The translations under genes and the position numbers were made by a program. Positions 8,060-40,897 of a stretch of 64,000 nt of DNA are shown in pieces. Under the pieces are notes generated by a model. That model made no database searches. It was given only the letters and a program-made list of their open reading frames with translations, and had not been told where the DNA came from. The stretch's first letter is position 1; every line of letters starts with the position of its first letter. This DNA comes from Patescibacteria group bacterium (GTDB lineage Bacteria > Patescibacteriota > Minisyncoccia > Phycocordibacterales > Phycocordibacteraceae), in contig JBBUDY010000019.1 of the NCBI GenBank assembly GCA_038057055.1, forward strand, positions 25,101 through 89,100, read 5' to 3'.

Positions 8060-8449
8060 TTACCACCGGCGATAACCGCCACGATTGTACCCGTGACTAT
8101 GACCACCGCGATAGATACTCTGGATGATCGCTACTCCGACCACCCCGGCCACCACCCCCCATCCAAAACTGGGGTTGTAGGTGTAGGCCACCGCCTGTGA
8201 TGCACAGACGACCTGCCCATAGTACACCGCGGGATACGTCCCATACGGACACGGCGCGGGTACGTAGACAACCGCTGGTGCCACAGACGCCGGTGCGGAC
8301 GGTGTTCCGCCCGCCGCCTGCGGATAAGCCGGCGCCTGATTCGACAGCACTGGCGCCGGATAGTAATACACCTGCGCCGGATCAATCGCACAGCCGCCGG
8401 CGAACAAGACAAAAATTGAAATGAAAAGAGCAGAAAATTTAGTTTTCAT
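8060..8449 (-). CDS. Small lipoprotein with Pro/Tyr/Ala-rich region and glycine-zipper C-terminus
   Basis: Signal peptide plus lipobox LFAGGC. GWGVVAGVVGVAII glycine-zipper-like segment. Confidence 0.6.
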   Translation of the reverse strand: MKTKFSALFISIFVLFAGGCAIDPAQVYYYPAPVLSNQAPAYPQAAGGTPSAPASVAPAVVYVPAPCPYGTYPAVYYGQVVCASQAVAYTYNPSFGWGVVAGVVGVAIIQSIYRGGHSHGYNRGGYRRW

Positions 8450-8557
8450 GACTACCTCCTAGATTGGGGGATGCCATCACTGAAGCCGATGGTCTGTGGA
8501 GAGTATAACACTACTTACAGTATTTTGTCAAGCCCCTCCAAAAAGCCTGTATTCTGG

Positions 8558-8566
8558 TGGTAGTAT
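8558..8566 (+). promoter_or_regulatory. Extended -10 promoter (TGgTAGTAT) 6 nt before pilB ATG
   Basis: TGnTAnnnT element ends 6 nt upstream of ATG 8573. No SD, so a leaderless-type design. Confidence 0.45.
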
Positions 8567-8572
8567 AGCGTT

Positions 8573-10243
8573 ATGGACCTACCGTTTGATGTTACCCATG
8601 AGGAGGGAAAGCTTGCAGAGATACGTGAGCGAGAAGAGGAGGATGTGGCGCGCATCCTCTCTGACAAATATGGTATACCCTACGTCGACCTCGCATTAAA
8701 GCAGATTGACAACGATGCACTTCGCATTATTCCTGAAGCGCAAGCCCGTGCCGCCGAGGCAGTTGCCTTCGCAAAAACCGCAAAGGTACTTTCGCTCGCT
8801 ATCCATAATCCAAATAATCCAGCTCTCGAAAAACTTTCTGCCGACCTCGCTGAACGCGGGTTCTCCACCCATACCTCCCTTGCCTCAAAGAAAAGTTTAG
8901 ATAAGGCATTTGCGCGCTACAAAGAACTCTCCTTTGCTACCGAATCAAAACCGGGTGTTTTTACTATCACCCAAGAAACATTCACAAGAGTCATAAATAA
9001 AAGTAATACACTTGCTTCTTTCACTCATGAACTCGATGTCGCGGTCTCCGAGAAATCACTTGATCGCGTCTCGCACCTGCTTGAAGTCATTCTCTCCGGT
9101 GCATTTGCGCTTCGTGCGTCTGATATTCACTTTGAGCCGGAAGAAACAAAGACTCTTCTGCGCTTGCGTATTGACGGCGTCTTATTCGATACTCTATTTT
9201 TTGACCCCGCGACATTCCATCAGCTCAACTCTCGCATCAAACTGCTCTCGGGCATAAAGTTGAATGTGAGCAATCAGGCGCAGGACGGTCGCTTCAGTGT
9301 TGAAAGGGACGGATTGCAAATCGAGATGCGTGTCTCCTTTATTCCGAGTAATTATGGCGAAACTATTGTGATGCGTATTCTAAATCCTGAAGCAACAAAA
9401 AAATCTACAAAAGATCTTGGTATTCACCCAAAACTTCTTGCACGACTTGAGACAGAAATACATCGACCAAACGGTATGCTTCTCAACACGGGACCAACCG
9501 GAAGCGGTAAGACGACCACGTTGTACACTTTTCTCCGAGAGATACACACACCAGAAATAAAAATCATCACGATTGAAGACCCGGTCGAGTATCATCTCGA
9601 GGGTATCGTGCAGACGCAAGTTGAAGGAGAAAAATATACGTTTGCCGAAGGGCTCCGCTCAATTGTGCGCCAAGACCCAGACATCATCATGGTCGGCGAA
9701 ATCCGCGACGGCGAAACGGCCAATATCGCTATCCAGGCAGCGCTCACTGGCCACTTCGTCTTCTCTACCCTTCACACCAACGACGCCGCCGGCACCTTCC
9801 CACGCCTCGTCGACCTTGGTGCAGACCCAAAGTCCTTTGGTTCGGCGGTCACTGTGTCAATGGCACAGCGACTTATGCGCACTCTTGATCCTGACAGAAA
9901 GAAAGAGCGATCCCTTACTGACGAAGAGAAAAGAATGATTGAAAAAGTGTTTGCCCCGCTTGCTGATAAATCACTTGTCCCTAAAAAAATAGAGACGGTA
10001 TGGGATCCTTCTCCCATAAGTGCAGATGAAACAGGTTATAAGGGGCGAGTCGGCATCCATGAAGCTATTTTTATGGACGATGAACTCGCTAACTTCATCC
10101 GTGATAATCCTCCCGAAAACGAGATCGCCAAATTGACGAGCAAGCAGGGCTACCTCACCCTCGCACAGGACGGTATTATCAAAGCACTCGCCGGCATCAC
10201 CTCCCTCTCCGAAGTCGCCGCCACCGTCGACCTTCCTCGATAA
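8573..10243 (+). CDS. pilB: Type IV pilus / type II secretion assembly ATPase (PilB/GspE family), copy 1
   Basis: Walker A GPTGSGKTTTLY, Asp and His boxes (VGEIRD, TGHFVFSTLHTN), N-terminal T2SSE_N-like region. Confidence 0.9.
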   Translation: MDLPFDVTHEEGKLAEIREREEEDVARILSDKYGIPYVDLALKQIDNDALRIIPEAQARAAEAVAFAKTAKVLSLAIHNPNNPALEKLSADLAERGFSTHTSLASKKSLDKAFARYKELSFATESKPGVFTITQETFTRVINKSNTLASFTHELDVAVSEKSLDRVSHLLEVILSGAFALRASDIHFEPEETKTLLRLRIDGVLFDTLFFDPATFHQLNSRIKLLSGIKLNVSNQAQDGRFSVERDGLQIEMRVSFIPSNYGETIVMRILNPEATKKSTKDLGIHPKLLARLETEIHRPNGMLLNTGPTGSGKTTTLYTFLREIHTPEIKIITIEDPVEYHLEGIVQTQVEGEKYTFAEGLRSIVRQDPDIIMVGEIRDGETANIAIQAALTGHFVFSTLHTNDAAGTFPRLVDLGADPKSFGSAVTVSMAQRLMRTLDPDRKKERSLTDEEKRMIEKVFAPLADKSLVPKKIETVWDPSPISADETGYKGRVGIHEAIFMDDELANFIRDNPPENEIAKLTSKQGYLTLAQDGIIKALAGITSLSEVAATVDLPR

Positions 10244-10248
10244 ACTCT

Positions 10249-11622
10249 ATGGGTCTCTCGCTTATATTTTTTCTTTTATTCATAACAATCGTTGTTAGTA
10301 TCGGTTTTGTTTCCTCTCGAGAAGAAACCGAAGATGGTTTTATGATTGCTGAACGTAAGGTGGAGGGGGTCCAGGTTGCTGCCACAATGAGCGCTGCTTT
10401 CTTTGACGGGTTTATGTTGTCTGTCTACATAGCCTATATCTATCAATATGGTTTTTCTGCTATCTGGATGTTTGTCGGCTTAGCGCTCGGGCTGTTGTTA
10501 CTCAAGAAATATGCGTGGCGAATTAAACAGAAAGCGGATGAGTTGAAGGTGTATTCGATGCCGGAATATTTTTATAGGATGTTGGGAAAGAGAAATGGGC
10601 TCATGTTTTCGTTGTTTCTCGTACTCCAATTTTTTCTTATACTGATTGTTAACCTCATAGTCAGTAGTAAGGTCTTATCGGCTATTTTTCCCATTTCATA
10701 TGTATTCGCTTTGAGTATCGGAGGGGTAATCGTTTTATCGTATCTTTTGCTCGCAGGATTTAAGGCGGTCGTAAGGACGGATTTCTTTCAAGTCATCATT
10801 GGGCTTATTATGGCGTTCACGGTATCCGTTTATCTGTTTGGTAAAACCCACATCCCGGCTGCAGAGTTTAGTCTCGGGGCACTCGGTCTTGGGGACACTC
10901 TCGGTTTTGTGATCCTTGGTGGTCTCGGAATGATGGCCGCTCCTGATTTATGGCAACGAATATTTGCAACAAAGGATGAAAAGAATTTGCGGCGGGGGCT
11001 CAACTATTCAGTCGTTATACTTATGGTATTCGCGGTTGTGGTTAGTGTCATTGGACTCGTTACAAAACAATTTTTTCCGGGCATCCTCCCTGAAGATGCC
11101 CTCGTCACCGGGTTTTCCCAACTGCTGCCTTTCGGACTTAAAGAACTTGGTATGATACTTTTGTATGCGGTGACACTCTCGTCAACGGATACCGTCACCT
11201 TTGTCGTCTCATCAATCTTTACGCGCGACCTCAATAACTACACAGAGAAATATAGCGCGACCTCCATGCGGAGGCTCACCCGCTTCTTCATGGTTGCTTT
11301 TATCATTCTCGCGCTCATCGTCGCTGTTTCATATCACGACATCATGCAGCTCGGGTTTTCGCTGGCGAGTTTGAACCTTGCGCTCTTCCCCGTGGTATTT
11401 GGATCACTCTATTGGAAGCTGAAACAAAAAGCGGTGTTTTGGAGCTTGGTTCTTGGGTTTCTAAGCATTCTTATACTGTTTGTCACGAGTCAGCTGAACC
11501 CACAAAACGCAATCATCTCATTGCCGGTTGTCTTATTCTCACTAATTATTTTTCAAAAACTTCTCAAGGCAGATTCTCCGCCTCTCGCCGAAGTCGCCGC
11601 CACGGTCGACTTGCCGAAATAA
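10249..11622 (+). CDS. Sodium:solute symporter (SSS) family transporter; C-terminus formed by a pilB-tail repeat
   Basis: About 12 TM helices. AGFKAVVRTDFFQ and PDLWQRIFATKDEK motifs are SSS-like. The last 14 codons duplicate the pilB tail. Confidence 0.7.
   Translation: MGLSLIFFLLFITIVVSIGFVSSREETEDGFMIAERKVEGVQVAATMSAAFFDGFMLSVYIAYIYQYGFSAIWMFVGLALGLLLLKKYAWRIKQKADELKVYSMPEYFYRMLGKRNGLMFSLFLVLQFFLILIVNLIVSSKVLSAIFPISYVFALSIGGVIVLSYLLLAGFKAVVRTDFFQVIIGLIMAFTVSVYLFGKTHIPAAEFSLGALGLGDTLGFVILGGLGMMAAPDLWQRIFATKDEKNLRRGLNYSVVILMVFAVVVSVIGLVTKQFFPGILPEDALVTGFSQLLPFGLKELGMILLYAVTLSSTDTVTFVVSSIFTRDLNNYTEKYSATSMRRLTRFFMVAFIILALIVAVSYHDIMQLGFSLASLNLALFPVVFGSLYWKLKQKAVFWSLVLGFLSILILFVTSQLNPQNAIISLPVVLFSLIIFQKLLKADSPPLAEVAATVDLPK
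11581..11622. repeat. pilB 3'-terminus repeat, copy 2 (PLAEVAATVDLPK*)
   Basis: Aligns to 10202-10243. Contains the identical 15-nt core CCGAAGTCGCCGCCA. Confidence 0.9.
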
Positions 11623-11632
11623 AGTAGGGGTG

Positions 11633-11641
11633 TGGTATAGT
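11633..11641 (+). promoter_or_regulatory. Extended -10 promoter TGgTATAGT, 6 nt before ATG 11648
   Basis: The motif TGTGGTATAGT is identical to the one upstream of hicB (49283-49293, minus strand). Confidence 0.5.
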
Positions 11642-11647
11642 TTATAT

Positions 11648-11863
11648 ATGAGCACCGTAACGATTCCCAAACAAGAATATCGAAGTCTGAAGCGTCAATC
11701 AGATGCGTATCGTGCTATTGCCGCCGGACGATTTGAATATGTGATCCGCGATAGCGTGGAAACCGTCATGAAAGATTTCGAAAAAACCGGGTTGTATAAC
11801 AAAAGATTCCTGGCCGATCTAGAAAAAGGACTGCGAAGGTCTTCTGTGTATAAGAATGCATGA
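11648..11863 (+). CDS. Putative antitoxin (partner of RelE/ParE-like toxin)
   Basis: 72-aa ORF whose stop overlaps the toxin start (ATGA). No recognisable family. Confidence 0.5.
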   Translation: MSTVTIPKQEYRSLKRQSDAYRAIAAGRFEYVIRDSVETVMKDFEKTGLYNKRFLADLEKGLRRSSVYKNA

Positions 11864-12108
11864 AAATCGCTCCGCTCCATGCGGACGTGACTGTGTATTT
11901 GCGTAAGCGTCAGTTGCTTCGTAAGTGGGATAAGGCGTCTAGACTTTTTGAGACAAACATTCGTCATCCGTCGTTAAATACGGAGCTTATGGAACCACAT
12001 TGGCGCGGCGTGTATTCTTTCAGAATCGATAAGAAATACCGTGCGATGTTTCTTCCAATCTCAAATGACAACGTAGAGATCATTGGAATTACAAATCATT
12101 ATAAATAA
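11860..12108 (+). CDS. RelE/ParE-superfamily toxin
   Basis: 82 aa. RHPSL...YRAMF pattern shared with the toxin at 30456-30701. Typical TA gene pair geometry. Confidence 0.6.
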   Translation: MKIAPLHADVTVYLRKRQLLRKWDKASRLFETNIRHPSLNTELMEPHWRGVYSFRIDKKYRAMFLPISNDNVEIIGITNHYK

Positions 12109-12147
12109 CGATTGACAGGATGTAACCGTTGTATATACTTCGGGTAT

Positions 12148-12432
12148 ATGAAAACTGCCATAAGCTTCAAGATAGACACAGACGTCCGCAACCGAGCACG
12201 AATTGTTGCTAAGAAAATCGGCGTGCCTCTTTCAATGGTCGTGAACCAGCAATTGAAGCAGTTTGCGAATAATCGAAGTATTGAGTTCTATGAGCCACTT
12301 ATCCCGAATGCGAAGACTCGAAAAATTCTCGATGAGGCCATGCGAGATATTAAAGAAGGTCGAGAGGACAAATTCTCTCCCGCATTTACGAATATAAAAG
12401 ATATGGACCAATGGCTTGATAGAAAGGCATGA
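12148..12432 (+). CDS. RelB/DinJ-family antitoxin
   Basis: MKTAISFKIDTDVRNRARIVAKKIGVPLSMVVNQQLKQF is an RHH/DinJ-like N-terminus. Overlaps the toxin start. Confidence 0.7.
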   Translation: MKTAISFKIDTDVRNRARIVAKKIGVPLSMVVNQQLKQFANNRSIEFYEPLIPNAKTRKILDEAMRDIKEGREDKFSPAFTNIKDMDQWLDRKA

Positions 12433-12692
12433 TTGTCATTTATTCTAAAAAATTCCGAAGGAATTACGAGAAGCTTCCACGTAAGCTGCAGGAAAAATTT
12501 AAGCACCGCCGAAACTTATTTCTTGAGAATCAGTTCGACTCGATTCTAAACAATCACCAATTATATGATCCATATGCAGGATGCCGAAGCATAAACGTAA
12601 CGGGTGATTACCGCGCCGTTTTCTATCACGAAAGCCCGGGTATCATCCAATTCATTGCTATCGGCACACATCACGAACTTTTTGGCACATAA
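12429..12692 (+). CDS. RelE/YafQ-family mRNA interferase toxin
   Basis: 87 aa. KKFRRNYEKLPRKLQEKF...GDYRAVF...IGTHHELF pattern. Confidence 0.7.
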   Translation: MIVIYSKKFRRNYEKLPRKLQEKFKHRRNLFLENQFDSILNNHQLYDPYAGCRSINVTGDYRAVFYHESPGIIQFIAIGTHHELFGT

Positions 12693-12693
12693 C

Positions 12694-12744
12694 AGCAGCA
12701 CCTCGCTTGCCGAAGTCGCCGCCATGGTCAACCTCCCGCGTTAA
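12694..12744. repeat. pilB 3'-terminus repeat, copy 3 (orphan; SSTSLAEVAAMVNLPR*)
   Basis: 17 codons align to 10193-10243. Starts 2 nt after the toxin stop and is not part of any ORF. Confidence 0.9.
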
Positions 12745-12817
12745 TTTATTTAGTCACTGTTTGTGTTCCATGTCTCTAACGGTCGTTAGACTTATGGAAC
12801 AGCTTAAAGGAACAATC

Positions 12818-12841
12818 TCCCGTTCATAGTCCTCAAGGCAA
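12818..12841. repeat. 24-nt direct repeat copy A (TCCCGTTCATAGTCCTCAAGGCAA)
   Basis: Matches 13668-13691 with one mismatch. Copy B forms the 5' strand of the closing stem of the candidate RNA. Confidence 0.85.
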
Positions 12842-12951
12842 AACCCTCAAATGAACGCGGGATGGGTATTGTGGCTGTACAGAACGGGCACTTGCGTATC
12901 TACAGGGGGGGGTAGGATTGGGGCATTAGAAACGGGACTAACCAATTTTGT

Positions 12952-13296
12952 ATGAATGAGACTCCCAGTAAAAAGATGGGTTTGGAACAGGGTCGAGATG
13001 GAAATTTGACCCATGAAAAAAAGAGAGAATATCGAAAAAGAAGAACACTGTACGAGAAAGCTATTAAGGAGGAATACAAAAATGGGAGACTGCTTGGGAA
13101 GCCCGATATCTTACTACCCGCTAATATAGATGCTATTTTTGAAAATTACTTTCGAGATAGAATAAAGGAGAGGGGTATTTCAGTTAGCGAAGAGGATTTA
13201 TTCAAGCTTATAGAAGATTTTGAAATGGCGGTAGCAGAGACAAAGGAATACGTCTTTGGGAAGATTAGAGAAGAACTTGATCATATGCCGCCATGA
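12952..13296 (+). CDS. Hypothetical protein (Lys/Glu-rich)
   Basis: 114-aa ORF in a cassette bounded by the 24-nt repeats. No recognisable motif. Confidence 0.5.
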   Translation: MNETPSKKMGLEQGRDGNLTHEKKREYRKRRTLYEKAIKEEYKNGRLLGKPDILLPANIDAIFENYFRDRIKERGISVSEEDLFKLIEDFEMAVAETKEYVFGKIREELDHMPP

Positions 13297-13350
13297 AGAA
13301 AACCATCGACGAATTGTAAAGTGTTTCACTACTAAACTAACATCACCACT

Positions 13351-13665
13351 ATGTCAGCAGAATTCCCAAAATCAGTTCTTCCTCCTCAAGTAGAAAAAAC
13401 TCCGGACGTAGACAAAGCTGAAGTACTGTCCGCCGCAATATCTCGAGTCGATGAAAAATTCGGTAATGTGCCAGATGATGCTTTTGTTCTAATAAAAAGA
13501 GAGAGCCCCTCCGAGGTTTCTGTGACTCTTTCAGATCGAAGGTACCACGCGCAGATTAATCTGTCGGAGACATTACATTTACCTGATGACATCGCTCTCA
13601 GGACAGAAACTGGAAGTGTGACAACTAGTTCAATGGGAGCACTAAGAAAGTTATTAAAACAGTAA
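13351..13665 (+). CDS. Hypothetical protein
   Basis: 104-aa ORF. Its stop lies 2 nt before repeat copy B. Confidence 0.5.
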   Translation: MSAEFPKSVLPPQVEKTPDVDKAEVLSAAISRVDEKFGNVPDDAFVLIKRESPSEVSVTLSDRRYHAQINLSETLHLPDDIALRTETGSVTTSSMGALRKLLKQ

Positions 13666-13667
13666 AA

Positions 13668-13908
13668 TCCCGTCCATAGTCCTCAAGGCAATAATCCAGC
13701 CCCAGTTTTGTAGCGCGATCGCTATTACCGGTTTCCCTCGTTTTGCTTCGTAGATTCCAAGTAAAATTGGTACCCGTCACAAAACTGGGGCTGGAGGGGA
13801 CGAAACACCTGAGGAGTTCCACAGCAACACGACCGAAATCGTGGAACCAAAGAGTCCTTGGGGAAACGCCCGAAGCCGTCAAGCCTTGCCTAGAGGAGTA
13901 TGAACAGG
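13668..13908 (+). ncRNA. Candidate structured RNA of unknown class (~240 nt)
   Basis: Perfect 16-bp stem 13696-13711/13779-13794. Closing stem 13669-13689 with 13883-13908. Hairpins 13816-13822/13841-13847 and 13857-13875. A separate ruvB promoter-like TGTGATAGAAT lies at 13954-13964. Strand is not proven. Confidence 0.4.
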
Positions 13909-13984
13909 ATTAAGGGAACACTTATGTCGCGGCACATGCTGCGACCTGGAAACTGTGATAGAATGTTAGCACTACAACATTTTT

Positions 13985-14980
13985 ATGTCAAGCTTGTCGA
14001 ATATCAATCCTGCCGCTCCTACCTCGCTCGATTCGGCACTCCGCCCTGTCAATTGGAATGAATACGTCGGACAGAAGCAGGTAAAAGCGAATGTCCGCAT
14101 CTCTCTTGATGCGGCAAAAAAGCGCGGGAGCATGCCCGAACATATCCTCTTCTACGGTCCACCGGGCGTCGGTAAGACAACACTCGCTCACTTGGTCGCC
14201 ACAACTCTCGAGTCGCCCTTAAAAAGCACATCGGGGGTTGCTATCGAGCGTGCGGGCGACCTCGCCGCTATTCTTACCAACCTTGAACCAAACACGGTTC
14301 TTTTTATCGATGAAATTCATCGGCTTTCACGAAAGATAGAGGAGCTTCTCTACCCTGCACTTGAATCGGGACATCTCGACATTGTGCTCGGGAAAGGCCC
14401 TTCGGCGCGCACCGTCGAGCTCTCACTCCCCTCTTTCACCCTTGTCGGTGCGACGACCCGTGTTGCGGAACTCTCGGGACCCTTGCGTTCGCGCTTTGGT
14501 GGCGGCGTGTTCCAGCTTGATTTCTACAATGACGAGGATTTGCGCGACATCATTCGCCGCTCGGCGTTTCTGCTTAACTTGGAAGCGCCCGAAGAGGTAA
14601 TCGAGCGTATCGCCGCAAGAAGCCGCGCGACGCCGAGAGTCGCGAACGCGCTTCTGAAGCGCGTTCGCGACTTCTCTGAGGTACATGAACGGGCGCTTTC
14701 TGAAGAGCTGTGCGATGAGGCGTGCGAACTCTTCGGCATCGACGCCCACGGTCTGACCAAAGATGATCGGCGCTATCTCGAGACGCTTCTGAAGAGCTTC
14801 CGAGGCGGCCCCGCCGGTGTTCAGGCACTCGCGGCTGCGCTCCACGAAGACTCTGACACCGTCGAACATGTCTATGAGCCCTATCTGCTCCGTCTCGGCT
14901 TCATCGAGCGCTCCTCGCGCGGCCGCATCCTCACTCCCGCCGGCCGCGCCTATCTTCAGGGTGACACGCTTCCAGTGTAA
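13985..14980 (+). CDS. ruvB: Holliday junction helicase RuvB
   Basis: Walker A GPPGVGKTTLA, Walker B LFIDEIHRL, sensor TTR. Confidence 0.96.
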   Translation: MSSLSNINPAAPTSLDSALRPVNWNEYVGQKQVKANVRISLDAAKKRGSMPEHILFYGPPGVGKTTLAHLVATTLESPLKSTSGVAIERAGDLAAILTNLEPNTVLFIDEIHRLSRKIEELLYPALESGHLDIVLGKGPSARTVELSLPSFTLVGATTRVAELSGPLRSRFGGGVFQLDFYNDEDLRDIIRRSAFLLNLEAPEEVIERIAARSRATPRVANALLKRVRDFSEVHERALSEELCDEACELFGIDAHGLTKDDRRYLETLLKSFRGGPAGVQALAAALHEDSDTVEHVYEPYLLRLGFIERSSRGRILTPAGRAYLQGDTLPV

Positions 14981-21435: not shown

Positions 21436-22163
21436 TATCTTCTTTCTTTAACACCGCTTTCTACGATCCTATTTATAATGCGCTCGTCGCGCTCGTCTCA
21501 TTTATTCCTGGCGGAGATGTGGGTGTCGCAGTCATTCTTGTGACGATTGTTATACGCCTCCTCCTCCTCCCCTTCTCTCTTTCGGCGGCGCGCACCCAAC
21601 GGGCAATGAAAGTGCTTGAACCGAAGATTAAGGACCTGAAGGAAAAACATAAAGGTGATAAAGAAAAAGAAGCGCTTGAAACCCTCTCACTCTATCGAGA
21701 AGCAAAAGTGAACCCATTTGCAAGTATTCTGACCGTTTTTATTCAAATTCCTATTCTTCTCGCTCTCTACTTTGTCTTCTATTATGAACCATTTCCGGCT
21801 ATCAATGCTGCGCGACTGTACTCATTTACCCCGACTCCGGACATAGCATCACTTGAATTCCTCGGGCTAATTTCAGTTGCAAGCAAAAGTATGGTACTGG
21901 CACTTCTCGCAGGGATAACGCAGTTTTATCAGGCACATCTCGCACTCTCGGGGACAATGAAGCCATCAGACACAAAAAGTATGCAGAACGATTTTCAAAG
22001 GATTATGGGTCTGCAGTTGAAATATGTGTTTCCGTTCCTTATCGGAACCATTGCATACACCACCTCCGGTGCCATTGCGCTGTACTTTATTACCACAAAT
22101 CTTGCTGGCTCTTTGCAGGAAATATATGTGCGCCGAGCGCTTACGGCAGAAGAATCACAATGA
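21432..22163 (+). CDS. yidC: Membrane protein insertase YidC (short type)
   Basis: rpmH-rnpA-yidC synteny, 5 TM helices, LLLLPFSLSAARTQRAMKVLEPKIKDLKEKH. Confidence 0.88.
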   Translation: MISSFFNTAFYDPIYNALVALVSFIPGGDVGVAVILVTIVIRLLLLPFSLSAARTQRAMKVLEPKIKDLKEKHKGDKEKEALETLSLYREAKVNPFASILTVFIQIPILLALYFVFYYEPFPAINAARLYSFTPTPDIASLEFLGLISVASKSMVLALLAGITQFYQAHLALSGTMKPSDTKSMQNDFQRIMGLQLKYVFPFLIGTIAYTTSGAIALYFITTNLAGSLQEIYVRRALTAEESQ

Positions 22164-23348
22164 GTAACTCCAGAGTGAGAGATCATTTTTATTCACAAAT
22201 ACAAGCGTTGAATTAAGTTGATCGACAACGAGCGATTCAGCATCAAGTAAAGTGTTCGTTTCTTTCGTAAAGTCGAGTACCAGCTGTGCGTAGCGCCCAG
22301 ACACCTGTACCTTCCATATCCGATCAGAGAAATGTACCGCACCCTGATACCAGTCATCAGGGTAGGATCCAAAAGGAAATTCTAATGGGACACCACAGTA
22401 AATAACTGAATCATCGGCTGACCATACGCATTTGTCTGTGATGGTGGAAATAGGAAGGGAGAGAACCTCGTTTGTTGTTGTATTTACCAGCCCCATTTGC
22501 ATAGACCCATTGAGTGAATAACTCACGAGTACCCATTTTCCTGAAGGGCTTGCGAGAGCAGTGAGCCCCATGCGCGGACCGAATATGCGAGAAAAGATGC
22601 CAGCACTATCAACGAGATAGGCGTTGCCCAGGAGGAGAGATGATGGTTTTGTATAAACGAGATACTGATTTTTCCCTGCGAAAGAAGCATGAATTGCAGA
22701 TAAGGGTGTAGTGAATATTTGAGTTGCATGTGAGCCGTCAACATTCGTGAGTGAACCAATTGAACCATTGACTCCAGAGGCAAGAATAAGAACGCTCGTC
22801 GAGGACACGGCGATGTCAGCAAGATTTTGAGATAAAAAGAAACCTCCGGAACCACTAAGAGGGAGTGCATAGGTGTTGATAGTGGAAGAATTGTCTCCAG
22901 AGAGATAGCGCACAAAAGCAAGTGAGGCGTTCGGGAGCCAAGAGGCAGACTGGATACCCGGAATAGTTTTATTGGAGGTGCGTGTTGTTGCTCTTGAAGC
23001 GGTACTGTATGAGAAGATGTTGCCACTTTCGCGATCGATATAATTCACGGTCGTTTCTGGGGTAGAACTTGTGCTCACAGTCTTGCTGACGACACTTTCG
23101 CCGAGCGCGACCGGTCCCACACTGATACGTACTAATCGTGGTGAGACAGTAGTCGGGGTGTTAGGAGAGACGATGGTACCACCACCCTCGGGTATACCTG
23201 TCTGCGACGTTCCCTGCCCTGCTATCGGGAGACCTACCCCGGGAGTGGTCGTCACCACTGGCTTTTTGGCAAGGAATAAGAAATAAATAATCACCCCCAC
23301 TCCGAGGAGAAGTATCACCACTGCCGCAATAAGTAAGTACCGTCGCAT
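22155..23348 (-). CDS. Membrane-anchored extracellular protein of the T4SS-like cluster
   Basis: N-terminal TM (LLIAAVVILLLGVGVIIYFLFL), Ser/Thr-rich beta-rich body. Start at MRRYLL, 8 nt after the upstream stop. Confidence 0.55.
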   Translation of the reverse strand: MRRYLLIAAVVILLLGVGVIIYFLFLAKKPVVTTTPGVGLPIAGQGTSQTGIPEGGGTIVSPNTPTTVSPRLVRISVGPVALGESVVSKTVSTSSTPETTVNYIDRESGNIFSYSTASRATTRTSNKTIPGIQSASWLPNASLAFVRYLSGDNSSTINTYALPLSGSGGFFLSQNLADIAVSSTSVLILASGVNGSIGSLTNVDGSHATQIFTTPLSAIHASFAGKNQYLVYTKPSSLLLGNAYLVDSAGIFSRIFGPRMGLTALASPSGKWVLVSYSLNGSMQMGLVNTTTNEVLSLPISTITDKCVWSADDSVIYCGVPLEFPFGSYPDDWYQGAVHFSDRIWKVQVSGRYAQLVLDFTKETNTLLDAESLVVDQLNSTLVFVNKNDLSLWSYSL

Positions 23349-23355
23349 AGTTATT

Positions 23356-24069
23356 TTACTGGCAAGAGCCGTGTGCTTTTGAAGCGTCATATAATAATCC
23401 TCCTGGAGGATCTAGTACCACCTTCTTGTCAGGAGGACAGGTTTGGCACACATATTTATTTACGCCGCCCAATACTGGTAAAATGAGACCAGGACCACCC
23501 GTTGCTGCGGTACACTCTGTCTGTTTTTGCTCAAGAACGGATCTCACAGTTCCTTTGAGGGTAACTAGATTAATTTCGAAACCATACAAAACTCTTCCTC
23601 CTTGCGATTCTCTTATCTCCCGATCTTCAGCTGGGAGTGTATATGTCGATGTTGTTGGCGTATACGGTGTGTACTCAAGATCAAGCGGGGGGAGATTGAG
23701 TGAAAGATTTAAGATACGCGGGTTGATGATAGAGAAGACAAGGACGGGCGAGAGGACAAGTACGAGACCGAAGATGGCATTTAGTATCTTCTCTTTTCCC
23801 GCGCCCTTCGCTCCCGGCACGTCCTGTGTTGCATACTCAAGCCCGCCCCAGATAATCATAATGACGGCGAGCGCCGCGGCGAGACCGACGCAATACTTAT
23901 AGAGATTATTGAAAAAGTTTCCGAAGTCAACAGAACCATTCACCATCTTTACTACTCCCACTTCCGTTAGTCCTGGAATAGGAGCAAGTGGCACAAATCC
24001 TTGTGCGAAGACGTGTGGGGCGACACTAAAGAGAAAGAAGAAAGCAGACACGAAGATTAGTTTTTTCAT
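23356..24069 (-). CDS. Putative T4SS pilin-like protein (TrbC/VirB2-like topology)
   Basis: Signal peptide ending FAQG, then two hydrophobic helices (LAAALAVIMIIWGGL; AIFGLVLVLSPVLVFSII). C-terminal extension with Cys. Confidence 0.45.
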   Translation of the reverse strand: MKKLIFVSAFFFLFSVAPHVFAQGFVPLAPIPGLTEVGVVKMVNGSVDFGNFFNNLYKYCVGLAAALAVIMIIWGGLEYATQDVPGAKGAGKEKILNAIFGLVLVLSPVLVFSIINPRILNLSLNLPPLDLEYTPYTPTTSTYTLPAEDREIRESQGGRVLYGFEINLVTLKGTVRSVLEQKQTECTAATGGPGLILPVLGGVNKYVCQTCPPDKKVVLDPPGGLLYDASKAHGSCQ

Positions 24070-25049
24070 AAGCCAAAGAAGTTAGAGCTTTCTGTCGCAC
24101 CAAATAGAAGTGAGAGGTCCATCGATGCGGTCAGAGTACTCCCTGAAGAGGCGGTGAGCGAGAGTGACGCAGTCCCTTGCCCGTCTCCTGTGGGACGTAG
24201 CGTGATAGAGCTTCCTGTTTGCGCGGGAGAACCATTGACGAACCACTGGAGAAAAGGAGCTCCCCGAGCTGTCGGGAGTGAGAAGGGCGCTCCGTAGAGT
24301 GTCGATTCTGCGCCAGTGATAGAGAAGGAACCTATAAGTGCGCGATCGAAGCGAATGCCGAGAAGCGGATCATTCTCATATATTCGCATCGAGGGCTCTT
24401 GCGGAGAGAGGGAGACAGTGCTGCCGCCGACGAGAGTTCCACCCTGGTTCGTGACTTCGACTGAGACGTCGCGAGCGCGATATTGGAGCGGCGACGCGAC
24501 GATAATGGCGCTTTTGCCGATGCCTGAAGAGTTTGCGATACGAGTATCATCGACGACCCATTTATAGGTGAGGGTAGAGGAGTCGACTGATACACCACCT
24601 GCAGTTCTAAAATTTGCCACAGCAACGACGCGCGCACTCCCCTCGACTGGTACCGAGGGTTTGCCGGGGTAGAGTGGTGGCGCCGAAGAGATTGGTTCAG
24701 CGACGAGGGAAACATCTTGGGGTTGAATTGAGACCGTCTGTCTGTAGTTTGTACCGCCGACCACTATCGTTACTTCCACCTGGGTGACACCCCCGGCTTT
24801 CCCGAGAGAGAGAGCAACAGGACGTACACTCCCCTGATAGACATTCTTTCCCCCACTCGTGACAGTCATCGTTGCGTTTGCGAGGTCGAGTGAACTTGAC
24901 TCAATAGAGAGGGTCATTCGACTATACGGCGCTGGATATTGAGGATTGATTGAGACGGTGAATGGCGCGGTGTTTCCTATCGATCCCATAAACTGTGCCG
25001 TAACCACAGCTGGAAGGAGGAGAGAGAGAGTAAGAACAGCAAGACGCAT
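24066..25049 (-). CDS. Secreted protein of the T4SS-like cluster
   Basis: Signal peptide MRLAVLTLSLLLPAVVTAQF. Repetitive beta-rich sequence. Translationally coupled to its neighbours. Confidence 0.55.
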   Translation of the reverse strand: MRLAVLTLSLLLPAVVTAQFMGSIGNTAPFTVSINPQYPAPYSRMTLSIESSSLDLANATMTVTSGGKNVYQGSVRPVALSLGKAGGVTQVEVTIVVGGTNYRQTVSIQPQDVSLVAEPISSAPPLYPGKPSVPVEGSARVVAVANFRTAGGVSVDSSTLTYKWVVDDTRIANSSGIGKSAIIVASPLQYRARDVSVEVTNQGGTLVGGSTVSLSPQEPSMRIYENDPLLGIRFDRALIGSFSITGAESTLYGAPFSLPTARGAPFLQWFVNGSPAQTGSSITLRPTGDGQGTASLSLTASSGSTLTASMDLSLLFGATESSNFFGL

Positions 25050-25078
25050 ACTTCTAGTATAGCGCCTACGCGAGGTAG

Positions 25079-25756
25079 CTATGCTGCCTTATCCATCCGT
25101 TGGGTATATTCGTCATCATTTGCCGCTTCTACTCTCTCTTGTTCGTATGCCGCATCGTTTGCCGCCCCCTGCTGCATTGATATAGCTCCTTGAGCTGCTT
25201 GAATTTGTGCAGCCTGTGCCATTTGTTCGTTTCTCTCCCGCAGTCGAGCGTCTGCCGTATCCTTCTCCCATTTTTTGAATGCTGCTGTCTCGACTTTGAT
25301 TTGATTTCTGTACATTCGCCATGTGGTGAAAGTCAATGCGGGGAGGGCATTGACAAAAGGAACTTCGCTCACCGCGAGACTAACAACGAACGAAAACAAG
25401 TTTTCTTTAAATATGCGCGCATTGGTCATCACCATCTTCATTCCAATCACCAGCCATCCGATAAGGCCCGTCGCCATAGCCATTACCACTCCAATGGGAG
25501 TAGTTGCTTCTACCGCTGCAGTTCCCACCACCGCAGCGACACCAGAACAAACTATTGCCGCGGTTTTCATTCCGAGCCATCCAAATGTCCATGACGATAA
25601 GACACCACTCGCTTTTGCTGTGCAATACAGAGCGGCAAGTGCTGGTCCCAAAAACCAAAAGAAGGTGAAAAATAGACGCACAGTATCAAAGGTTCCAGAC
25701 ATGACAATAGTTGGCATCGCCTTCGACCAGGTCATCAACGGGGGTGGTTCGGTCAT
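25079..25756 (-). CDS. Polytopic membrane protein (possible VirB6/TrbL analogue) with Gln/Ala-rich C-terminal coil
   Basis: About 5 TM helices followed by AQAAQIQAAQGAISMQQGAAN. Start at MTEPPP, downstream of the virB4 stop. Confidence 0.45.
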   Translation of the reverse strand: MTEPPPLMTWSKAMPTIVMSGTFDTVRLFFTFFWFLGPALAALYCTAKASGVLSSWTFGWLGMKTAAIVCSGVAAVVGTAAVEATTPIGVVMAMATGLIGWLVIGMKMVMTNARIFKENLFSFVVSLAVSEVPFVNALPALTFTTWRMYRNQIKVETAAFKKWEKDTADARLRERNEQMAQAAQIQAAQGAISMQQGAANDAAYEQERVEAANDDEYTQRMDKAA

Positions 25757-25781
25757 TTTGCCGCGGCGGAGCCGCGGCAAA

Positions 25782-27602
25782 CTAGGTGTTCTTTTCGGCG
25801 GCATATCGTTGCTTCTCCGCTTTTATTGCCATGAGTTGTGAGGGGTCGGAGGTGATAATCTGGTCTTCGGTATAACTTGCGACGACCTTAATCGCGACGT
25901 GTTTGAGACCCGCGAAGAAGAGCCCCTCCCCTACTCCCGCCTCAAGCAATAGATATTTTTCCTCGTCGGTGAGATTAAATGTTTTCTGCAGTACATCAAT
26001 CGTTGTCGAAGACTGTTTCAACAAGAGTTGCATTGAAGAGTTGGTGAGAATCGGTCGACCGTACGGGCTCTTTAAGAAGTCTTCAACGTCTTGGGTGATG
26101 GTGCAGACGCCGAGATAATATTTGCGGCCACGTTTCGCGAGAGAGTAGAGAAATGACGCGGTGTCGTCGCTCTTCATCATCCACCACGCCTCATCGACAA
26201 TGAGCAGACGTTTCTTGATGTCATGGCGCACCTCGTTCCACACGTAGTGGGTGAGGATATACATCGCGACCGGCTTTAATTCGTCCTCCATATCGCGTAC
26301 CGAGAAGACGGCGAATTGCTGTTTGATATCGATATTCGTCGGTTCATTGAGAAATCCAGACCACGTGCCGCGGGTGTATTTTGAAAGGCGCTCAAGGAGT
26401 GAGGTACTTCCCTCCATACCGGAGAGCACTTGTTCAAAGTCTGAGAGGAGCGGCGGTTCTGCACCCGTGAAGTCGGCGTCACCGGTAATATCTTTGAGCG
26501 CATACGTCTCGCTGATGGCGCGGTCGATGATAGCGTCTTCTTCAGGCGAAAGGCCGGAGAGCATAATGCGGAAGAGTCCAACGAGCGCGATGATGTTGGA
26601 GCGCAAAATATCCTTTGGGTCCTCATCCTCTTTGACCGGCGGGAGATCAAATGGATTGATATGGTGCTCAGAGGAGAGTGAGATGTTAAAGGAGCGGCCG
26701 CCAGTCGCTTCAGCGAGTTGCTCATATTCGCGTTCTGGATCGATGACAATAACATCGGTACCGAACATAAGTGCGCGTATGATTTCAAGCTTCGTCGAAT
26801 AACTCTTACCAGAACCGGACTTTGCGAAGACGACTGAATTGTAGTTTTCGAGCGAGAAGCGGTCAAAGAGAATAAGCGAAGAGTTATGGCGATTGATACC
26901 GTAGAGAATGCCGCGGTCGCTCGTGAGGTCGAAGGAGACAAACGGGAAAATAGAGGAGAGCGGCGAGGAGTTTAATTTCGTATTCACGAGGAGCTCGTCA
27001 GTGCCGAGTGGGAGGCACGAACGGAATCCTTGCTCCTGTTGGAAGAGTGCCGGTTTTGTATAGACGAGTTTTGAATCAAGGATGCCGCGGATATTACCCT
27101 CGGTCTTTTCTATCTCTTCTTTTGTATCGCCATAGAGTGCAAGATACAGACCAACATCAAAAAGCTTTTCTTGCGCTTGTTGGAGACTGTCGCGCAAACT
27201 CTCAAGATCTTGGTAGCCCGTGTCGAGAAGCGGGTCACGTACAAGACCCTTCTCCTCCCTTTCATTAATCTGACTCTGATACTCCGCGACTTTTTTCTGG
27301 AAACCGCGGAGTGCTTGTTCAGTGTCTATTGGGTGGATGAAGATGGATACATCGAGCACTTTATCGAGATTGATGACCGGCGAGAACCAGCTATCAGAAA
27401 GATAGCGCGGGTATGAGATGGTGTAGAAGGCACGGACGAACTTTTCACCAAGCTCGAGCTCACGCGGGCTTATTTTGAGCGCGGTCGGAGAGATGGTGTC
27501 GACAAGGTCGAGAGCGCCCTGTTTATAGATATCTTTCGGAAGCACCGGCATAACCGATGGAGCTTCTTCTTTTTTGCGATGGAGAAAATCGAGAAGGGAC
27601 AT
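25782..27602 (-). CDS. virB4: VirB4/TrbE-family T4SS ATPase (C-terminal ATPase part)
   Basis: Walker A FAKSGSGKSY, Walker B LLIVDEAWWMM, conserved GVCTITQ. Confidence 0.85.
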   Translation of the reverse strand: MSLLDFLHRKKEEAPSVMPVLPKDIYKQGALDLVDTISPTALKISPRELELGEKFVRAFYTISYPRYLSDSWFSPVINLDKVLDVSIFIHPIDTEQALRGFQKKVAEYQSQINEREEKGLVRDPLLDTGYQDLESLRDSLQQAQEKLFDVGLYLALYGDTKEEIEKTEGNIRGILDSKLVYTKPALFQQEQGFRSCLPLGTDELLVNTKLNSSPLSSIFPFVSFDLTSDRGILYGINRHNSSLILFDRFSLENYNSVVFAKSGSGKSYSTKLEIIRALMFGTDVIVIDPEREYEQLAEATGGRSFNISLSSEHHINPFDLPPVKEDEDPKDILRSNIIALVGLFRIMLSGLSPEEDAIIDRAISETYALKDITGDADFTGAEPPLLSDFEQVLSGMEGSTSLLERLSKYTRGTWSGFLNEPTNIDIKQQFAVFSVRDMEDELKPVAMYILTHYVWNEVRHDIKKRLLIVDEAWWMMKSDDTASFLYSLAKRGRKYYLGVCTITQDVEDFLKSPYGRPILTNSSMQLLLKQSSTTIDVLQKTFNLTDEEKYLLLEAGVGEGLFFAGLKHVAIKVVASYTEDQIITSDPSQLMAIKAEKQRYAAEKNT

Positions 27603-27604
27603 AA

Positions 27605-28264
27605 TTAGGTGTCGAGACGGATAGGATTCTCGAGTTCGCCCGGGTTGAAAGAGCGATACAGAAGCTCGATGACCTCTTCAGTACCGAGCGGGACCGCACG
27701 GACGCCGACGCCCGCGAGCCCGCTCCCGACGAGCGTCATCCTTTGTTCGAGTTGCGCCTGCTCCTCTGCAAAAGAGGTTTCAGAATTAGCATCTTTCTCC
27801 GCGGCATTTTCATGACGCAGGAAATTCACTGTTTTTGTAGCAGAGAAGTGAGGGGAGTACGGCACGATGACATAAAAAGATTTTGTCATGATATTTGCCT
27901 GGTCGGCAAAAGAACGGATGAACTCAATATATTCATGAAGCTGGACTCGCATAAGCTCGGTTTTTTGCTCCGTCTCTTTTTCAGCGAGGAGCGCGAGGTA
28001 CGGACGCAGGTCCATCTTTCGTGAATTGATAACGATTTGAATTGAGAAATCGAGCGTATTGAGGAAATTCTGAAAACCGAGAATGATTGCGTGCTGCTCC
28101 TCAGTCGACTTAAGACCGAAATTAATCGCGGAACAAATCAGGACACCGCGGTAACTACTGTCTTTGAGGATAATAACGCCATTCCGGATTTCCTTCACCG
28201 GGACGAATTGTTGCGTTGCATTTGCAGAGGCGAGTGCCATATCAGGATGTTTTTTGCATACCAT
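27605..28264 (-). CDS. VirB4 N-terminal-domain-like protein (split from the ATPase)
   Basis: QFVPVKEIRNGVIILKDSSYRGVLICSAINFGLKSTEEQ resembles the N-terminal region of VirB4/TraC-type ATPases. Stop lies 2 nt before the ATPase start, in a different frame. Confidence 0.5.
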   Translation of the reverse strand: MVCKKHPDMALASANATQQFVPVKEIRNGVIILKDSSYRGVLICSAINFGLKSTEEQHAIILGFQNFLNTLDFSIQIVINSRKMDLRPYLALLAEKETEQKTELMRVQLHEYIEFIRSFADQANIMTKSFYVIVPYSPHFSATKTVNFLRHENAAEKDANSETSFAEEQAQLEQRMTLVGSGLAGVGVRAVPLGTEEVIELLYRSFNPGELENPIRLDT

Positions 28265-28658
28265 TTGAAGGATTCTGCACGTCGAGTGACCACGCGAGCT
28301 CGGTGAGTTTCCCTCGTGTGAGCTTGGGCGTATGGCGGACCACCGGTGCAGTGACCATCTCTTTCTTTACGTTTTTTGGTTCCTCATGCTTCCAGAGGAA
28401 GAGCTTCGGACGTATATAATAGTTGAAACCGGATTCCACCATTTCAATAAAGGGCTTTCCATTTATTTTGTAGAACGCGAGCGCCGCAACAAAGCCTGCG
28501 ACCGGTAGTGAGAGGAGTACCGCGAAGATGATTGGTACATATGAAAAGAACACGACACAGAGCCCTGCCCCACCGGCGAGATAGATGAATTGCTTTAAGG
28601 TCAAAGGGCCAATAATCTTGTCCTCAACCCCGATGAATTGCGGAACCTGGTATTCCAT
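28242..28658 (-). CDS. PrgI/VirB3-like small membrane protein
   Basis: MEYQVPQFIGVEDKIIGPLTLKQFIYLAGG N-terminus plus two TM helices, as in PrgI-family proteins next to VirB4. Confidence 0.6.
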   Translation of the reverse strand: MEYQVPQFIGVEDKIIGPLTLKQFIYLAGGAGLCVVFFSYVPIIFAVLLSLPVAGFVAALAFYKINGKPFIEMVESGFNYYIRPKLFLWKHEEPKNVKKEMVTAPVVRHTPKLTRGKLTELAWSLDVQNPSNGMQKTS

Positions 28659-29955: not shown

Positions 29956-30198
29956 ATGGCACGCGCCTGCGAAATCACCGGCAAGAGCACGCAAATCGGC
30001 GGGCGGTACTCCAACCGTACCCGCGCGACGCAATTCAACCCAACCGGCAAGGTACGCCGCAAGGCCAATCTCCAGAAACGCCGCATCTATGTCCCCGAGC
30101 TCGGCAAGACCGTTATCGTGGACGTCTCGGTTAAGGGCCTAAAAACTATCAAAAAAAACGGCGCCTTCGCCGCGCTTACAAAAGCCGGAGCAATTTAA
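29956..30198 (+). CDS. rpmB: 50S ribosomal protein L28
   Basis: MARACEITGKSTQIGGRYSNRTRATQFNP is a typical L28 N-terminus. Confidence 0.88.
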   Translation: MARACEITGKSTQIGGRYSNRTRATQFNPTGKVRRKANLQKRRIYVPELGKTVIVDVSVKGLKTIKKNGAFAALTKAGAI

Positions 30199-30204
30199 CG
30201 TTTG

Positions 30205-30213
30205 TGATATAAT
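30205..30213 (+). promoter_or_regulatory. Extended -10 promoter TGaTATAAT, 6 nt before ATG 30220
   Basis: Perfect TATAAT with an upstream TG, starting 7 nt after the rpmB stop. No SD. Confidence 0.55.
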
Positions 30214-30219
30214 CGCGCT

Positions 30220-30459
30220 ATGGCAACCGCGACACTCAATAAGACAGACAGACTGCTCATAGAAGTGCTTCGCGAGGTGCGCGAGGTACGTTCTCTTGTA
30301 GAATATCCTTCACGCCCAGTCAGCACACGGAAAAAGAGTATAAAAAAACTCCCCAAATGGCTACAAGAGAGCCTAAGAGATGTTGAGGAAGGGCGAGTAT
30401 ATGGTCCGTTCAATACGGTTAAAGAATTGCGTGCATCTCTGGAGTCGGACGGTGAATGA
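30220..30459 (+). CDS. Putative antitoxin
   Basis: 79 aa, overlaps the toxin start by 4 nt. Confidence 0.55.
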   Translation: MATATLNKTDRLLIEVLREVREVRSLVEYPSRPVSTRKKSIKKLPKWLQESLRDVEEGRVYGPFNTVKELRASLESDGE

Positions 30460-30702: not shown

Positions 30703-30762
30703 GCCTCAACCATCAAGAAGAACAGCGCTTTCATTGCGCTCTCGAAAGCCGGAGCTATTTAG
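30703..30762. repeat. rpmB 3'-terminus repeat, copy 2 (orphan; ASTIKKNSAFIALSKAGAI*)
   Basis: 20 codons align to 30139-30198. Starts 2 nt after the toxin stop. Confidence 0.9.
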
Positions 30763-34588: not shown

Positions 34589-34595
34589 GCGGAAT

Positions 34596-34604: not shown

Positions 34605-34633
34605 TAATCACTTATTTCAACAGGTATCAAAGA

Positions 34634-34803: not shown

Positions 34804-34825
34804 ATATCTTTATGGTAGCGCGAGG

Positions 34826-40896: not shown

Positions 40897-40897
40897 T

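Follow-up and report, generated by a model that had tools for sequence, protein, structure and literature searches.

A groundwater bacterium of the Kaiserbacteria type, within the Candidate Phyla Radiation (CPR), carries three direct copies of the 3' end of pilB, the gene for the type IV pilus (T2SSE) assembly ATPase, and these copies bracket small gene cassettes inserted between pilB and ruvB. They lie in a 64 kb stretch of contig JBBUDY010000019.1 (positions 25,101 to 89,100; hereafter the window, to which coordinates refer unless a compared locus is named; compared loci carry L-numbers and compared proteins P-numbers). We favour, with moderate confidence, the interpretation that the cassettes accumulated by recombination, probably of the Campbell type, at a gene-boundary hotspot, and that the three pilB tails are scars of the junctions. 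The original prediction, made from the letters of the window, had described the duplicated tail and the two cassettes that it brackets, and comparison with relatives bears out that these are insertions. Beyond that prediction, the pilB locus is one case of a genome-wide pattern; the same architecture recurs at five further sites of the window and is found in other Paceibacteria as well.

Three copies of the pilB end

The pilB gene is intact (8573–10243, plus strand; Pfam T2SSE, E=1.9e-103, plus MshEN; orthologues in 80 loci), and its true end, the resident copy 1 (10194–10243, plus strand), encodes GITSLSEVAATVDLPR followed by the stop. Copy 2 (11573–11622, plus strand), ending in PPLAEVAATVDLPK and a stop, is read in frame as the C-terminus of the sodium:solute symporter (SSF) open reading frame (ORF) at 10249–11622, to which it supplies the last 13 codons and the stop. 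Copy 3 (12695–12744, plus strand), SSTSLAEVAAMVNLPR and a stop, is an orphan that is a member of no gene; it begins 2 nt past the stop (12692) of a YafQ/ParE-type toxin gene, and is absent in the strain variants L086 and L172. Direct reading, a repeat finder and a three-way alignment all find the three copies, so that their number, the placing of copy 2 within the transporter ORF and that of copy 3 behind the toxin are as originally predicted.

Over 50 nt, copy 2 is 68% identical to copy 1 (92% over the central 26 nt) and copy 3 is 80% identical to it. In all of them the stop codon is preserved and the similarity breaks off there. The identical 15-nt core that the copies had been said to share, CCGAAGTCGCCGCCA, occurs exactly three times in the window; in 100 shuffles, with up to two mismatches allowed, it was found 0.12 times on average and never three times. 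The sole symmetry seen in the repeats is GAAGTCG...CGAC(C)TTC, which derives from the E-V and V-D-L codons. The junctions are found in other assemblies as well: L087 is 99.7% identical over window positions 8400–13324 (4925 nt), all three copies included, and contigs from other samples carry the junctions at 100% (L088, L090, L091 and L171) or 99.0% identity (L089).

Insertions between pilB and ruvB

A PilB scan of species-representative genomes gave 80 loci in Paceibacteria (Kaiserbacteria and relatives), and the order polA-tsaE-pilB-ruvB-yebC-ruvC is conserved in about 70 of them. The right-hand neighbour ruvB (13985–14980, plus strand; Pfam RuvB_N/RuvB_C and synteny) adjoins pilB in these relatives, as the original prediction had suggested checking. 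Since the gap between the two genes is 3741 nt in the window and about 200–500 nt in most of the approximately 70 relatives, the cassettes are insertions. In the simplest relatives (L003, L009 and L002) a conserved RNA-like element follows 7 nt past the pilB stop, and then ruvB. The G+C content is 0.37–0.48 over 10.3–13.6 kb and 0.50–0.63 in the flanking core genes. The array in the window runs pilB, SSF, two toxin–antitoxin (TA) pairs, a partial RNA 5' end with orfX and orfY, and finally the complete RNA and ruvB.

The cargo between pilB and ruvB varies in more than 15 loci; because the content of the larger gaps differs between species, the junction is a general insertion hotspot. From reading of ORF translations only, this cargo includes TerC-like, lysA-like, ddl-like and LOG-like genes, a DUF559-type endonuclease and TA genes. 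Tail duplication is not a general property of pilB, since a peptide- and DNA-level scan of 73 loci in relatives found it behind pilB in L055 only. Several related contigs stop at or near the pilB 3' end.

Cassette content also varies among strains. L086, from the same aquifer well, has PilB, SSF and RuvB proteins 100% identical to those of the window, with DNA about 99% identical; in it a different RelB-3'/YafQ allele runs directly into 'aaacaaaaa' and the RNA, without copy 3, the hairpin that follows it or cassette 3 (orfX and orfY). In L172, from well H51, copy 3 is likewise missing; a third YafQ allele is followed there by the RNA 5' fragment, an additional TA pair in inverted orientation, the hairpin and a homologue of orfX/orfY. 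As judged from these variants, the region between pilB and ruvB is a recombining mosaic in which copy 3 is dispensable.

The symporter cassette

Cassette 1 is the SSF gene (10249–11622, plus strand; Pfam SSF), which starts 5 nt past the pilB stop and whose native last codons and stop have been replaced by copy 2. Homologues 70–92% identical to it are spread across CPR and DPANN (Moranbacteria, Liptonbacteria, Nomurabacteria, Gracilibacteria, Woesearchaeota and Nanoarchaeia) and end without a pilB-like tail; the gene is evidently frequently transferred. Among the 120 best homologues, 118 end about 5–10 residues past a conserved FQKLFK, in unrelated short tails, and only the window gene itself (P0001) and P0084 end in the pilB-like tail. 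Homologous transporters natively carrying the tail would have spoken against its origin from pilB, and the only other carrier also lies behind pilB: P0084, 71% identical to the window SSF, is encoded on L081, where the pilB tail is followed by 3 nt and then by ATG...KGDS-MTSLSEVAATVDLPSI and a stop, matching the window architecture. The sequence past this SSF gene is the sequence found past the pilB stop itself in L007 and L008. On this comparison the tail is not native to the transporter.

The SSF gene occurs in more than ten contexts, elsewhere within ordinary operons (GT2-SSF-galT), and no duplication of a gene tail on SSF was found in about 50 other SSF loci. In L109 (3250–3410 and 4755–4900) and L112 the gene lies between inverted repeats of about 130 nt that abut the 3' end of a tRNA gene; extended SSF matches there were considered as tail duplications and rejected, being these inverted repeats, which represent a different carriage of the same cargo, like that of a transposon or a miniature inverted-repeat transposable element (MITE). 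In L092 (1–182) the SSF gene simply adjoins a tRNA.

Other sites with the same architecture

Comparison of the window with itself by BLAST gave seven local direct repeats (24–70 nt, 77–96% identity, 0.5–2.5 kb apart), and none in any of 30 shuffles. Each of the seven encloses a small cassette at the boundary of a gene or an RNA; they are the two pilB pairs, a pair at the RNA upstream of ruvB, and one each at comEC, rpmB, the RNase Y gene (rny) and the flank of hicA. The footprint of a cassette with a duplicated gene end is thus present at six sites in 64 kb, and the bracketed cargo is mostly TA genes.

At rpmB (ribosomal protein L28; 30144–30761, plus strand) the repeat comprises the last 17 codons and the stop. 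The resident tail (30144–30197), TIKKNGAFAALTKAGAI and a stop, is followed by a TA-like pair (30220–30459 and 30456–30701). An extended -10, TGATATAAT, lies 6 nt ahead of the ATG of this pair, and another 6 nt separate the end of the pair from the orphan tail (30708–30761), TIKKNSAFIALSKAGAI and a stop. At comEC (34104–34807, minus strand) it is the start of the gene that is duplicated. The resident first 21 codons (34104–34169) have an 82% identical orphan copy (34742–34807) 638 nt upstream, the two reading MSALLAVVSGFASGVGVRSVF and MSVLIAIVSGFTSGVGVQSF, and a ParE toxin gene (34162–34413), whose stop overlaps the comEC ATG, and its antitoxin gene (34400–34630) lie between them. The orphan start opens a 58-codon ORF. 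Upstream of this TA pair is a 36-nt palindrome, GTACCTTGTTTTACGCTATAGCGTTAATTAAGGTAC (34677–34712), which is present again in the spacer between pilB and the RNA in L007 (2185–2220), and a second palindrome, CGCTATAGCG, lies at 34639–34648. At the hicA flank (48207–48833, strand not set) a direct repeat of about 67 nt (81% identity), starting 5 nt beyond the hicA stop, surrounds an ORF at 48355–48741. The RNase Y site is described below.

Other genomes provide further cases. In L055 (9622–10215) a pilB tail that is not homologous to that of the window, LNDEVMLETIS and a stop, is duplicated over 38 nt (36/38 identical) and brackets a 127-aa ORF with its terminator. In L059 (3141–4238) the pair ECELERFLLEAV and ECELERFLLEVV, each with its stop, surrounds a 327-aa gene, and differs by five synonymous codon changes and one non-synonymous change. 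Near-identical repeats were seen only in L055, L010, L026 and L074. Three other matches were rejected as instances of this phenomenon, those in L135 and L116 being intergenic promoter-like or MITE-like repeats and that in L113 looking like the starts of tandem paralogues.

Origin of the orphan copies

The RNase Y locus (53918–55362, plus strand) is decisive with regard to the history of the orphan copies. The repeat is made up of the last 19 codons and the stop; the resident tail (53918–53977) and the orphan tail (55302–55361) both encode PGEIKVNIIRENRVVEFAR and a stop, and enclose genes for DUF4325 (53981–54271, minus strand) and HATPase_c (54268–55266, minus strand) proteins. L167 and L168, in which RNase Y is 96% identical to that of the window, have a single tail followed directly by the gene for HU, and so present the empty site; L169 (RNase Y 94% identical) shares the cassette and carries both tails, and the divergence of the cassette matches that of rny (80.8% and 81.0% nucleotide identity respectively). 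A Fic/DOC gene that matches the PADLOC candidate defence families PDC-S04 and SoFic lies beside this cassette (55382–56350).

The orphan tail in the window differs from the resident tail at 14 of 60 nt, and all 14 differences are synonymous. When the five available rny tails are compared (resident and orphan of the window, resident and orphan of L169, and the single tail of L167), all ten pairs differ at 7–16 of 60 nt, and every difference is synonymous. This includes the comparison of the two orphans with each other (12/12), though the rny genes themselves are 19% diverged and the L169 orphan lies outside any translatable ORF, with a stop two codons upstream. Since decay in place cannot give differences that are only synonymous, the orphans must have been working gene ends until recently, or else keep exchanging with working ends. 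In its left part the window orphan has its nearest match in the resident tail of L169 (3/42 differences), the window resident is closest to L167, and the two window copies share a right-hand identical core of 11 nt; to judge from this alignment, the rny tails are hybrids of the kind that one crossover would leave when a foreign tail comes in and recombines with the resident one.

The pilB tails give a weaker signal that points in the same direction, towards working gene ends. In the true frame their codon changes number 10 synonymous to 8 non-synonymous (the alternative frames give 6:14 and 2:18), and the replacements S to A, T to M and D to N are each a state present in orthologous pilB tails.

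The toxin–antitoxin cassettes

Cassette 2 had been predicted to hold two RelE-type TA pairs, and this stands for the second pair. Cassette 2b (12112–12692, plus strand; Pfam and promoter scan) consists of a RelB antitoxin gene (12148–12432) and a YafQ/ParE-type toxin gene (12429–12692), with a promoter TTGACA-16-TATACT at 12112–12139 (11/12 in the promoter scan), and both proteins exceed the curated Pfam cut-offs (RelB 26.9 bits, cut-off 22.4; ParE_toxin 28.7 bits, cut-off 23). Cassette 2a (11648–12108, plus strand) is made up of overlapping small ORFs for a putative antitoxin (11648–11863) and a RelE-like toxin (11860–12108), for which the matches to YoeB/HigB are sub-threshold only (E 0.01–0.03). 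Membership of the type II RelE/ParE superfamily is thus found at 12148–12692, and also for the ParE protein encoded at 34162–34413 (41.8 bits).

Cassette 2a is preceded by an extended -10, TGGTATAGT (11633–11641, plus strand), 11 nt past the copy-2 stop, just where it had been predicted, and 6 nt before the antitoxin ATG. Three TA cassettes begin in this manner, with TGGTATAGT, TGATATAAT and TGGTATAAT placed 6–7 nt before the antitoxin ATG (11633–11650, 30203–30222 and, on the minus strand, 34600–34625), a spacing that suggests leaderless antitoxin mRNAs. The density of TA genes is high for such a small genome; further ParE-type toxin genes are present in the window (61234–61611) and in relatives (L167 3551–3832 and 7754–8044), beside mgsA/rarA and upstream of rny.

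Cassette 3 and the RNA upstream of ruvB

The spacer past copy 3 contains a hairpin, GTTCCAT...ATGGAAC (12765–12800, plus strand), read from the sequence and present also upstream of the orfX homologue in L172. Cassette 3 (12952–13665, plus strand) consists of two small ORFs of unassigned family, orfX (12952–13296) and orfY (13351–13665), which are absent in L086 and gave no match to Pfam or PADLOC; only two homologues of orfX were found among 5.8 billion proteins. This cassette is bracketed by a duplication of the 5' end of the RNA that precedes ruvB. The complete RNA occupies 13668–13911 (plus strand), and a partial orphan copy of its 5' end, comprising the 5' strand of P1 and a degenerate hairpin, was recognized at 12818–12865 (plus strand) by the repeat match and by comparison with the RNA consensus, the repeat being 24 nt long, 96% identical to 13668–13691 and extending weakly to about 48 nt.

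This RNA starts about 7 nt past the pilB stop in relatives, measures about 150–245 nt, has its own ruvB promoter downstream and was found in about 30 loci (e.g. L002 9678–9842 and L081 2318–2480). An alignment of 16 sequences gives 37 predicted pairs, 15 of them with compensatory changes, and on this comparative evidence we take it to be a real structured RNA. There was no Rfam match to it or to the repeats, either for the whole window at the gathering threshold or for 12600–14100 at E<=10. In the window its second hairpin is enlarged, with a perfect 17-bp stem (13695–13711 with 13779–13795). The RNA 5' end CTGACCTCTCTTCCCGTCCATA is also duplicated in L005 (9700–9830), and mini-hairpins like the closing stem of the RNA lie between pilB and the RNA in L004 (3470–3530) and L005. 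The RNA 5' end appears to be a second recurrent duplication point.

Proposed mechanism and alternatives

In the process that we envisage, a cassette would land directly behind the pilB stop and be followed by a second copy of the last 14–17 codons and the stop, with pilB staying intact. The promoterless transporter, translationally adjacent to pilB, would obtain its C-terminus and stop from the duplicated tail, a promoter placed for apparently leaderless expression would arrive with each TA cassette, and repeated events at one site would stack cassettes in tandem. The tail copies may act like att sites: a cassette circle with one copy of the gene end, taken up from a related lineage or excised from one, would recombine with the resident end within the short identical core (15 nt in pilB, 11 nt in rny), giving hybrid repeats on both sides, and the reverse reaction would remove the cassette cleanly, as the empty site of L167 may be read. 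We infer the circular intermediate, the enzyme and the direction of each event; candidate agents are the host's homologous recombination and recombination over short homology, following natural transformation. The DNA-uptake-related genes of the window make such uptake plausible, since pilB, a second T2SSE ATPase, pilin-like proteins and comEC are all encoded there. The second PilB-like ATPase gene lies at 44042–45832 and the pilin-like genes at 40096–42825; the window also has a type IV secretion-like cluster (22155–28658, minus strand) that includes genes for a TraG/VirB4-like ATPase (25782–27602), a PrgI/TcpE-like protein (28242–28658) and a type IV secretion pilin (23356–24069).

Several observations weigh against cassette accretion by such recombination. 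The identical cores, of 11–15 nt, fall short of the length that RecA-dependent recombination is known to require, and the proposed mechanism does not explain how a site comes to be duplicated in the first place. The two pilB-linked SSF genes (window and L081) are only 69% identical at the nucleotide level, and the tRNA-linked SSF gene of L092 is 87% identical to that of the window, so that either the pilB-SSF state arose twice or the body of the SSF gene was replaced. L086 and L172 carry a TA cassette without a tail copy behind it, and insertion or replacement without duplication must therefore also occur at the pilB site. The look-up of pilB loci gave no same-strain empty site for the pilB cassettes, and neither a circular form nor an excision product was seen. 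Finally, the Pfam scans, which found no integrase, transposase or resolvase domain in the approximately 60 ORFs of the window and in that respect favour the proposal, covered only 64 kb of the genome, and a recombinase may be encoded elsewhere in it.

A more far-reaching version of cassette accretion is conceivable, though we would put it forward only as a speculation: that Paceibacteria, including Kaiserbacteria, possess an integrase-independent form of cassette mobility in which a 40–70-nt mimic of a housekeeping-gene end serves as a portable recombination arm. The travelling units might then be TA pairs, defence-like genes and transporters, and after uptake the mimic could recombine with the resident end, leaving the gene unharmed and allowing arrays to build up. 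It is possible, if doubtful, that frequent excision and re-insertion of this kind keep the orphan copies under selection at the protein level.

Direct repeats with an identical core and diverged arms, a gene end that is reconstituted and coding-competent as an attP mimic would be, and a tandem array are also what would be left if a tyrosine or serine integrase with an attP mimicking the pilB 3' end had integrated small islands, and had later been lost or acted in trans; the three tails would then be attL, a hybrid att and attR. The tRNA-fragment-like repeats that flank DinD-like genes in L123 and L124 suggest that integrase-type events may occur in the group. We nevertheless consider this account unlikely. 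The cassettes are 0.5–1.4 kb long, and neither they nor the rest of the window encode an integrase; the duplicated sequences are unrelated to each other, so that at least six unrelated targets in one window would need as many specificities, and the pilB tail that is duplicated in L055 is non-homologous. Inspection of the cassette boundaries, by eye only, showed no conserved motif, and searches of viral contigs for the tail pattern, SSF and pilB gave no match. It is because of the lack of a recombinase in the window, the tiny cassettes, the unrelated targets and the absence of a boundary motif and of viral relatives that a dedicated site-specific system looks unlikely. PADLOC gave no match for the cargo of the pilB locus.

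Duplication of a 40–66 nt target in situ, by template switching or fill-in of a staggered break, with later divergence and with orphans overwritten by recombination with cassette-free alleles, seems to us less likely again. It would accommodate the variable repeat length (24–70 nt), and the near-identical repeats in L055 (36/38), L010, L026 and L074 fit young events; it needs no dedicated enzyme, and there are precedents with near-identical repeats among restriction–modification (RM) systems (PMC2853133). Unless the overwriting is assumed, however, it predicts random decay of the orphans, which the exclusively synonymous rny differences (14/14 and 12/12) contradict, and the window rny orphan resembles the resident tail of another lineage more than that of its own.

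There is little to recommend the notion that the copies are kept for a function, either as a promoter or processing signal of the RNA gene or as a C-terminal peptide needed by the transporter. The RNA starts 7 nt past the stop in relatives, so its promoter would lie inside the pilB tail, and the fusion of SSF to the tail is conserved in two species. Against this, L086 and L172 lack copy 3, which is thus dispensable; 118 of the 120 SSF homologues work without the tail; no copy in the window is directly followed by an intact RNA; the same duplication affects gene starts and unrelated genes; and the promoter scan called no promoter-like site in the copies. Lastly, the idea that assembly joined, via the shared tail, strain variants that differ in the genes behind pilB is prompted by the coexistence of L086 and L172 in the same aquifer samples and by the related contigs that end near pilB, but the exact shared core of 15 nt is below assembler k-mer sizes, the copies are only 68–82% identical, and assembly chimerism, the condition under which the original prediction would have failed, is to all intents excluded because the junctions recur at 99–100% identity in six independent contigs that come from different samples and assemblers.

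Comparison with known systems

Among described phenomena the nearest is insertion with long target duplication, in which RM gene units without mobility genes are flanked by direct repeats of 45–47 bp to several hundred bp (Nobusato et al., 2000; Furuta, Abe & Kobayashi, 2010, PMC2853133). The duplicated sequence is single-copy at the empty site, the repeats may overlap the 3' end of a gene or create fusions, and the hosts are mostly naturally competent species; the mechanism is unresolved (PMC2853133). These structural features are all present here. Small units without a mobility gene (Pfam, about 60 window ORFs) are flanked by repeats of 24–70 nt; sequences of more than 30 bp that are duplicated around the insert are single at the empty site, both at rny (one tail in L167 and L168, two in the window and L169) and at pilB, where relatives have one tail and no insert; there is an SSF-tail fusion; and pilB and comEC are encoded. 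There are also differences. The cargo is SSF, RelB/ParE-type TA, DUF4325 with HATPase, and ORFans rather than RM; the cassettes are stacked in tandem; the host belongs to the CPR; and the repeats are 68–82% identical, with mainly synonymous differences, whereas those of RM units are about 95–100% identical. The synonymous divergence indicates that these sequences were exchanged with the corresponding ends of orthologous genes in other lineages. A TA module of Microcystis with 152-bp direct repeats (PMC7935541) was rejected as being of the same kind, since its repeats are intergenic and not gene ends.

Islands borne by integrases at tRNA, tmRNA, icd, guaA and dusA genes (PMC4482086), and their integrase-less derivatives, share with the present cassettes the direct repeats at gene ends, the intact target, the coding-competent mimic and tandem accretion. 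As in such islands, an identical core restores the target (15 nt, with the pilB ORF intact); unlike them, the cassettes are tiny, no integrase is encoded in the window, and many unrelated targets are used within 64 kb. Instead of one conserved att for the family, there are the non-homologous tail of L055 and five further unrelated targets in the window.

In the minimal mobile elements of Neisseria, different cassettes occur between the same conserved genes and are moved by transformation and homologous recombination; they are replaced through the flanking genes, and gene ends are not duplicated. The pilB–ruvB interval likewise has different cargo in each species between the same conserved flanks, without mobility genes, and the host of the window has competence genes; the interval differs in that cassettes are added and not only swapped. 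Integron arrays resemble the present ones in having a fixed entry site (here the resident tail), cassettes that each end in a related repeat, and frequent TA cargo, but here it is coding sequence that the repeats duplicate, and most of the cassettes bring a promoter of their own. No Phage_integrase-type match to intI was found in the window, and no attC-type imperfect palindrome was seen on reading the repeats, no attC model having been run. Insertion sequences and transposons were rejected on the grounds that no inverted repeats flank the cassettes, there is no transposase and the duplications vary from 24 to 70 nt; a diversity-generating retroelement was rejected because there is no reverse transcriptase domain and the mismatches are of all types (G/A, T/G, C/G, C/T and others), without adenine bias.

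Implications

The genomes of CPR bacteria are tiny and have few recognizable mobile elements, and little is understood of the way in which these bacteria acquire accessory genes; the present architecture provides a footprint of gene gain that can be searched for. It explains the chimeric C-terminus of a transporter and several orphan mini-ORFs that are prone to annotation mis-calls, and it identifies pilB|ruvB and rny|hupB as highly variable hotspots at which assemblies tend to break. Orphan copies of conserved gene ends can serve as a search key for recently acquired TA and defence cassettes. The findings also extend long target duplication from RM to TA systems, and since both are addiction modules, they support the idea that addiction modules share a mode of spread. 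Should mimics of housekeeping-gene ends indeed act as portable recombination arms, a search for orphan gene ends would be a general way of recognizing recently gained genes in ultra-small bacteria.

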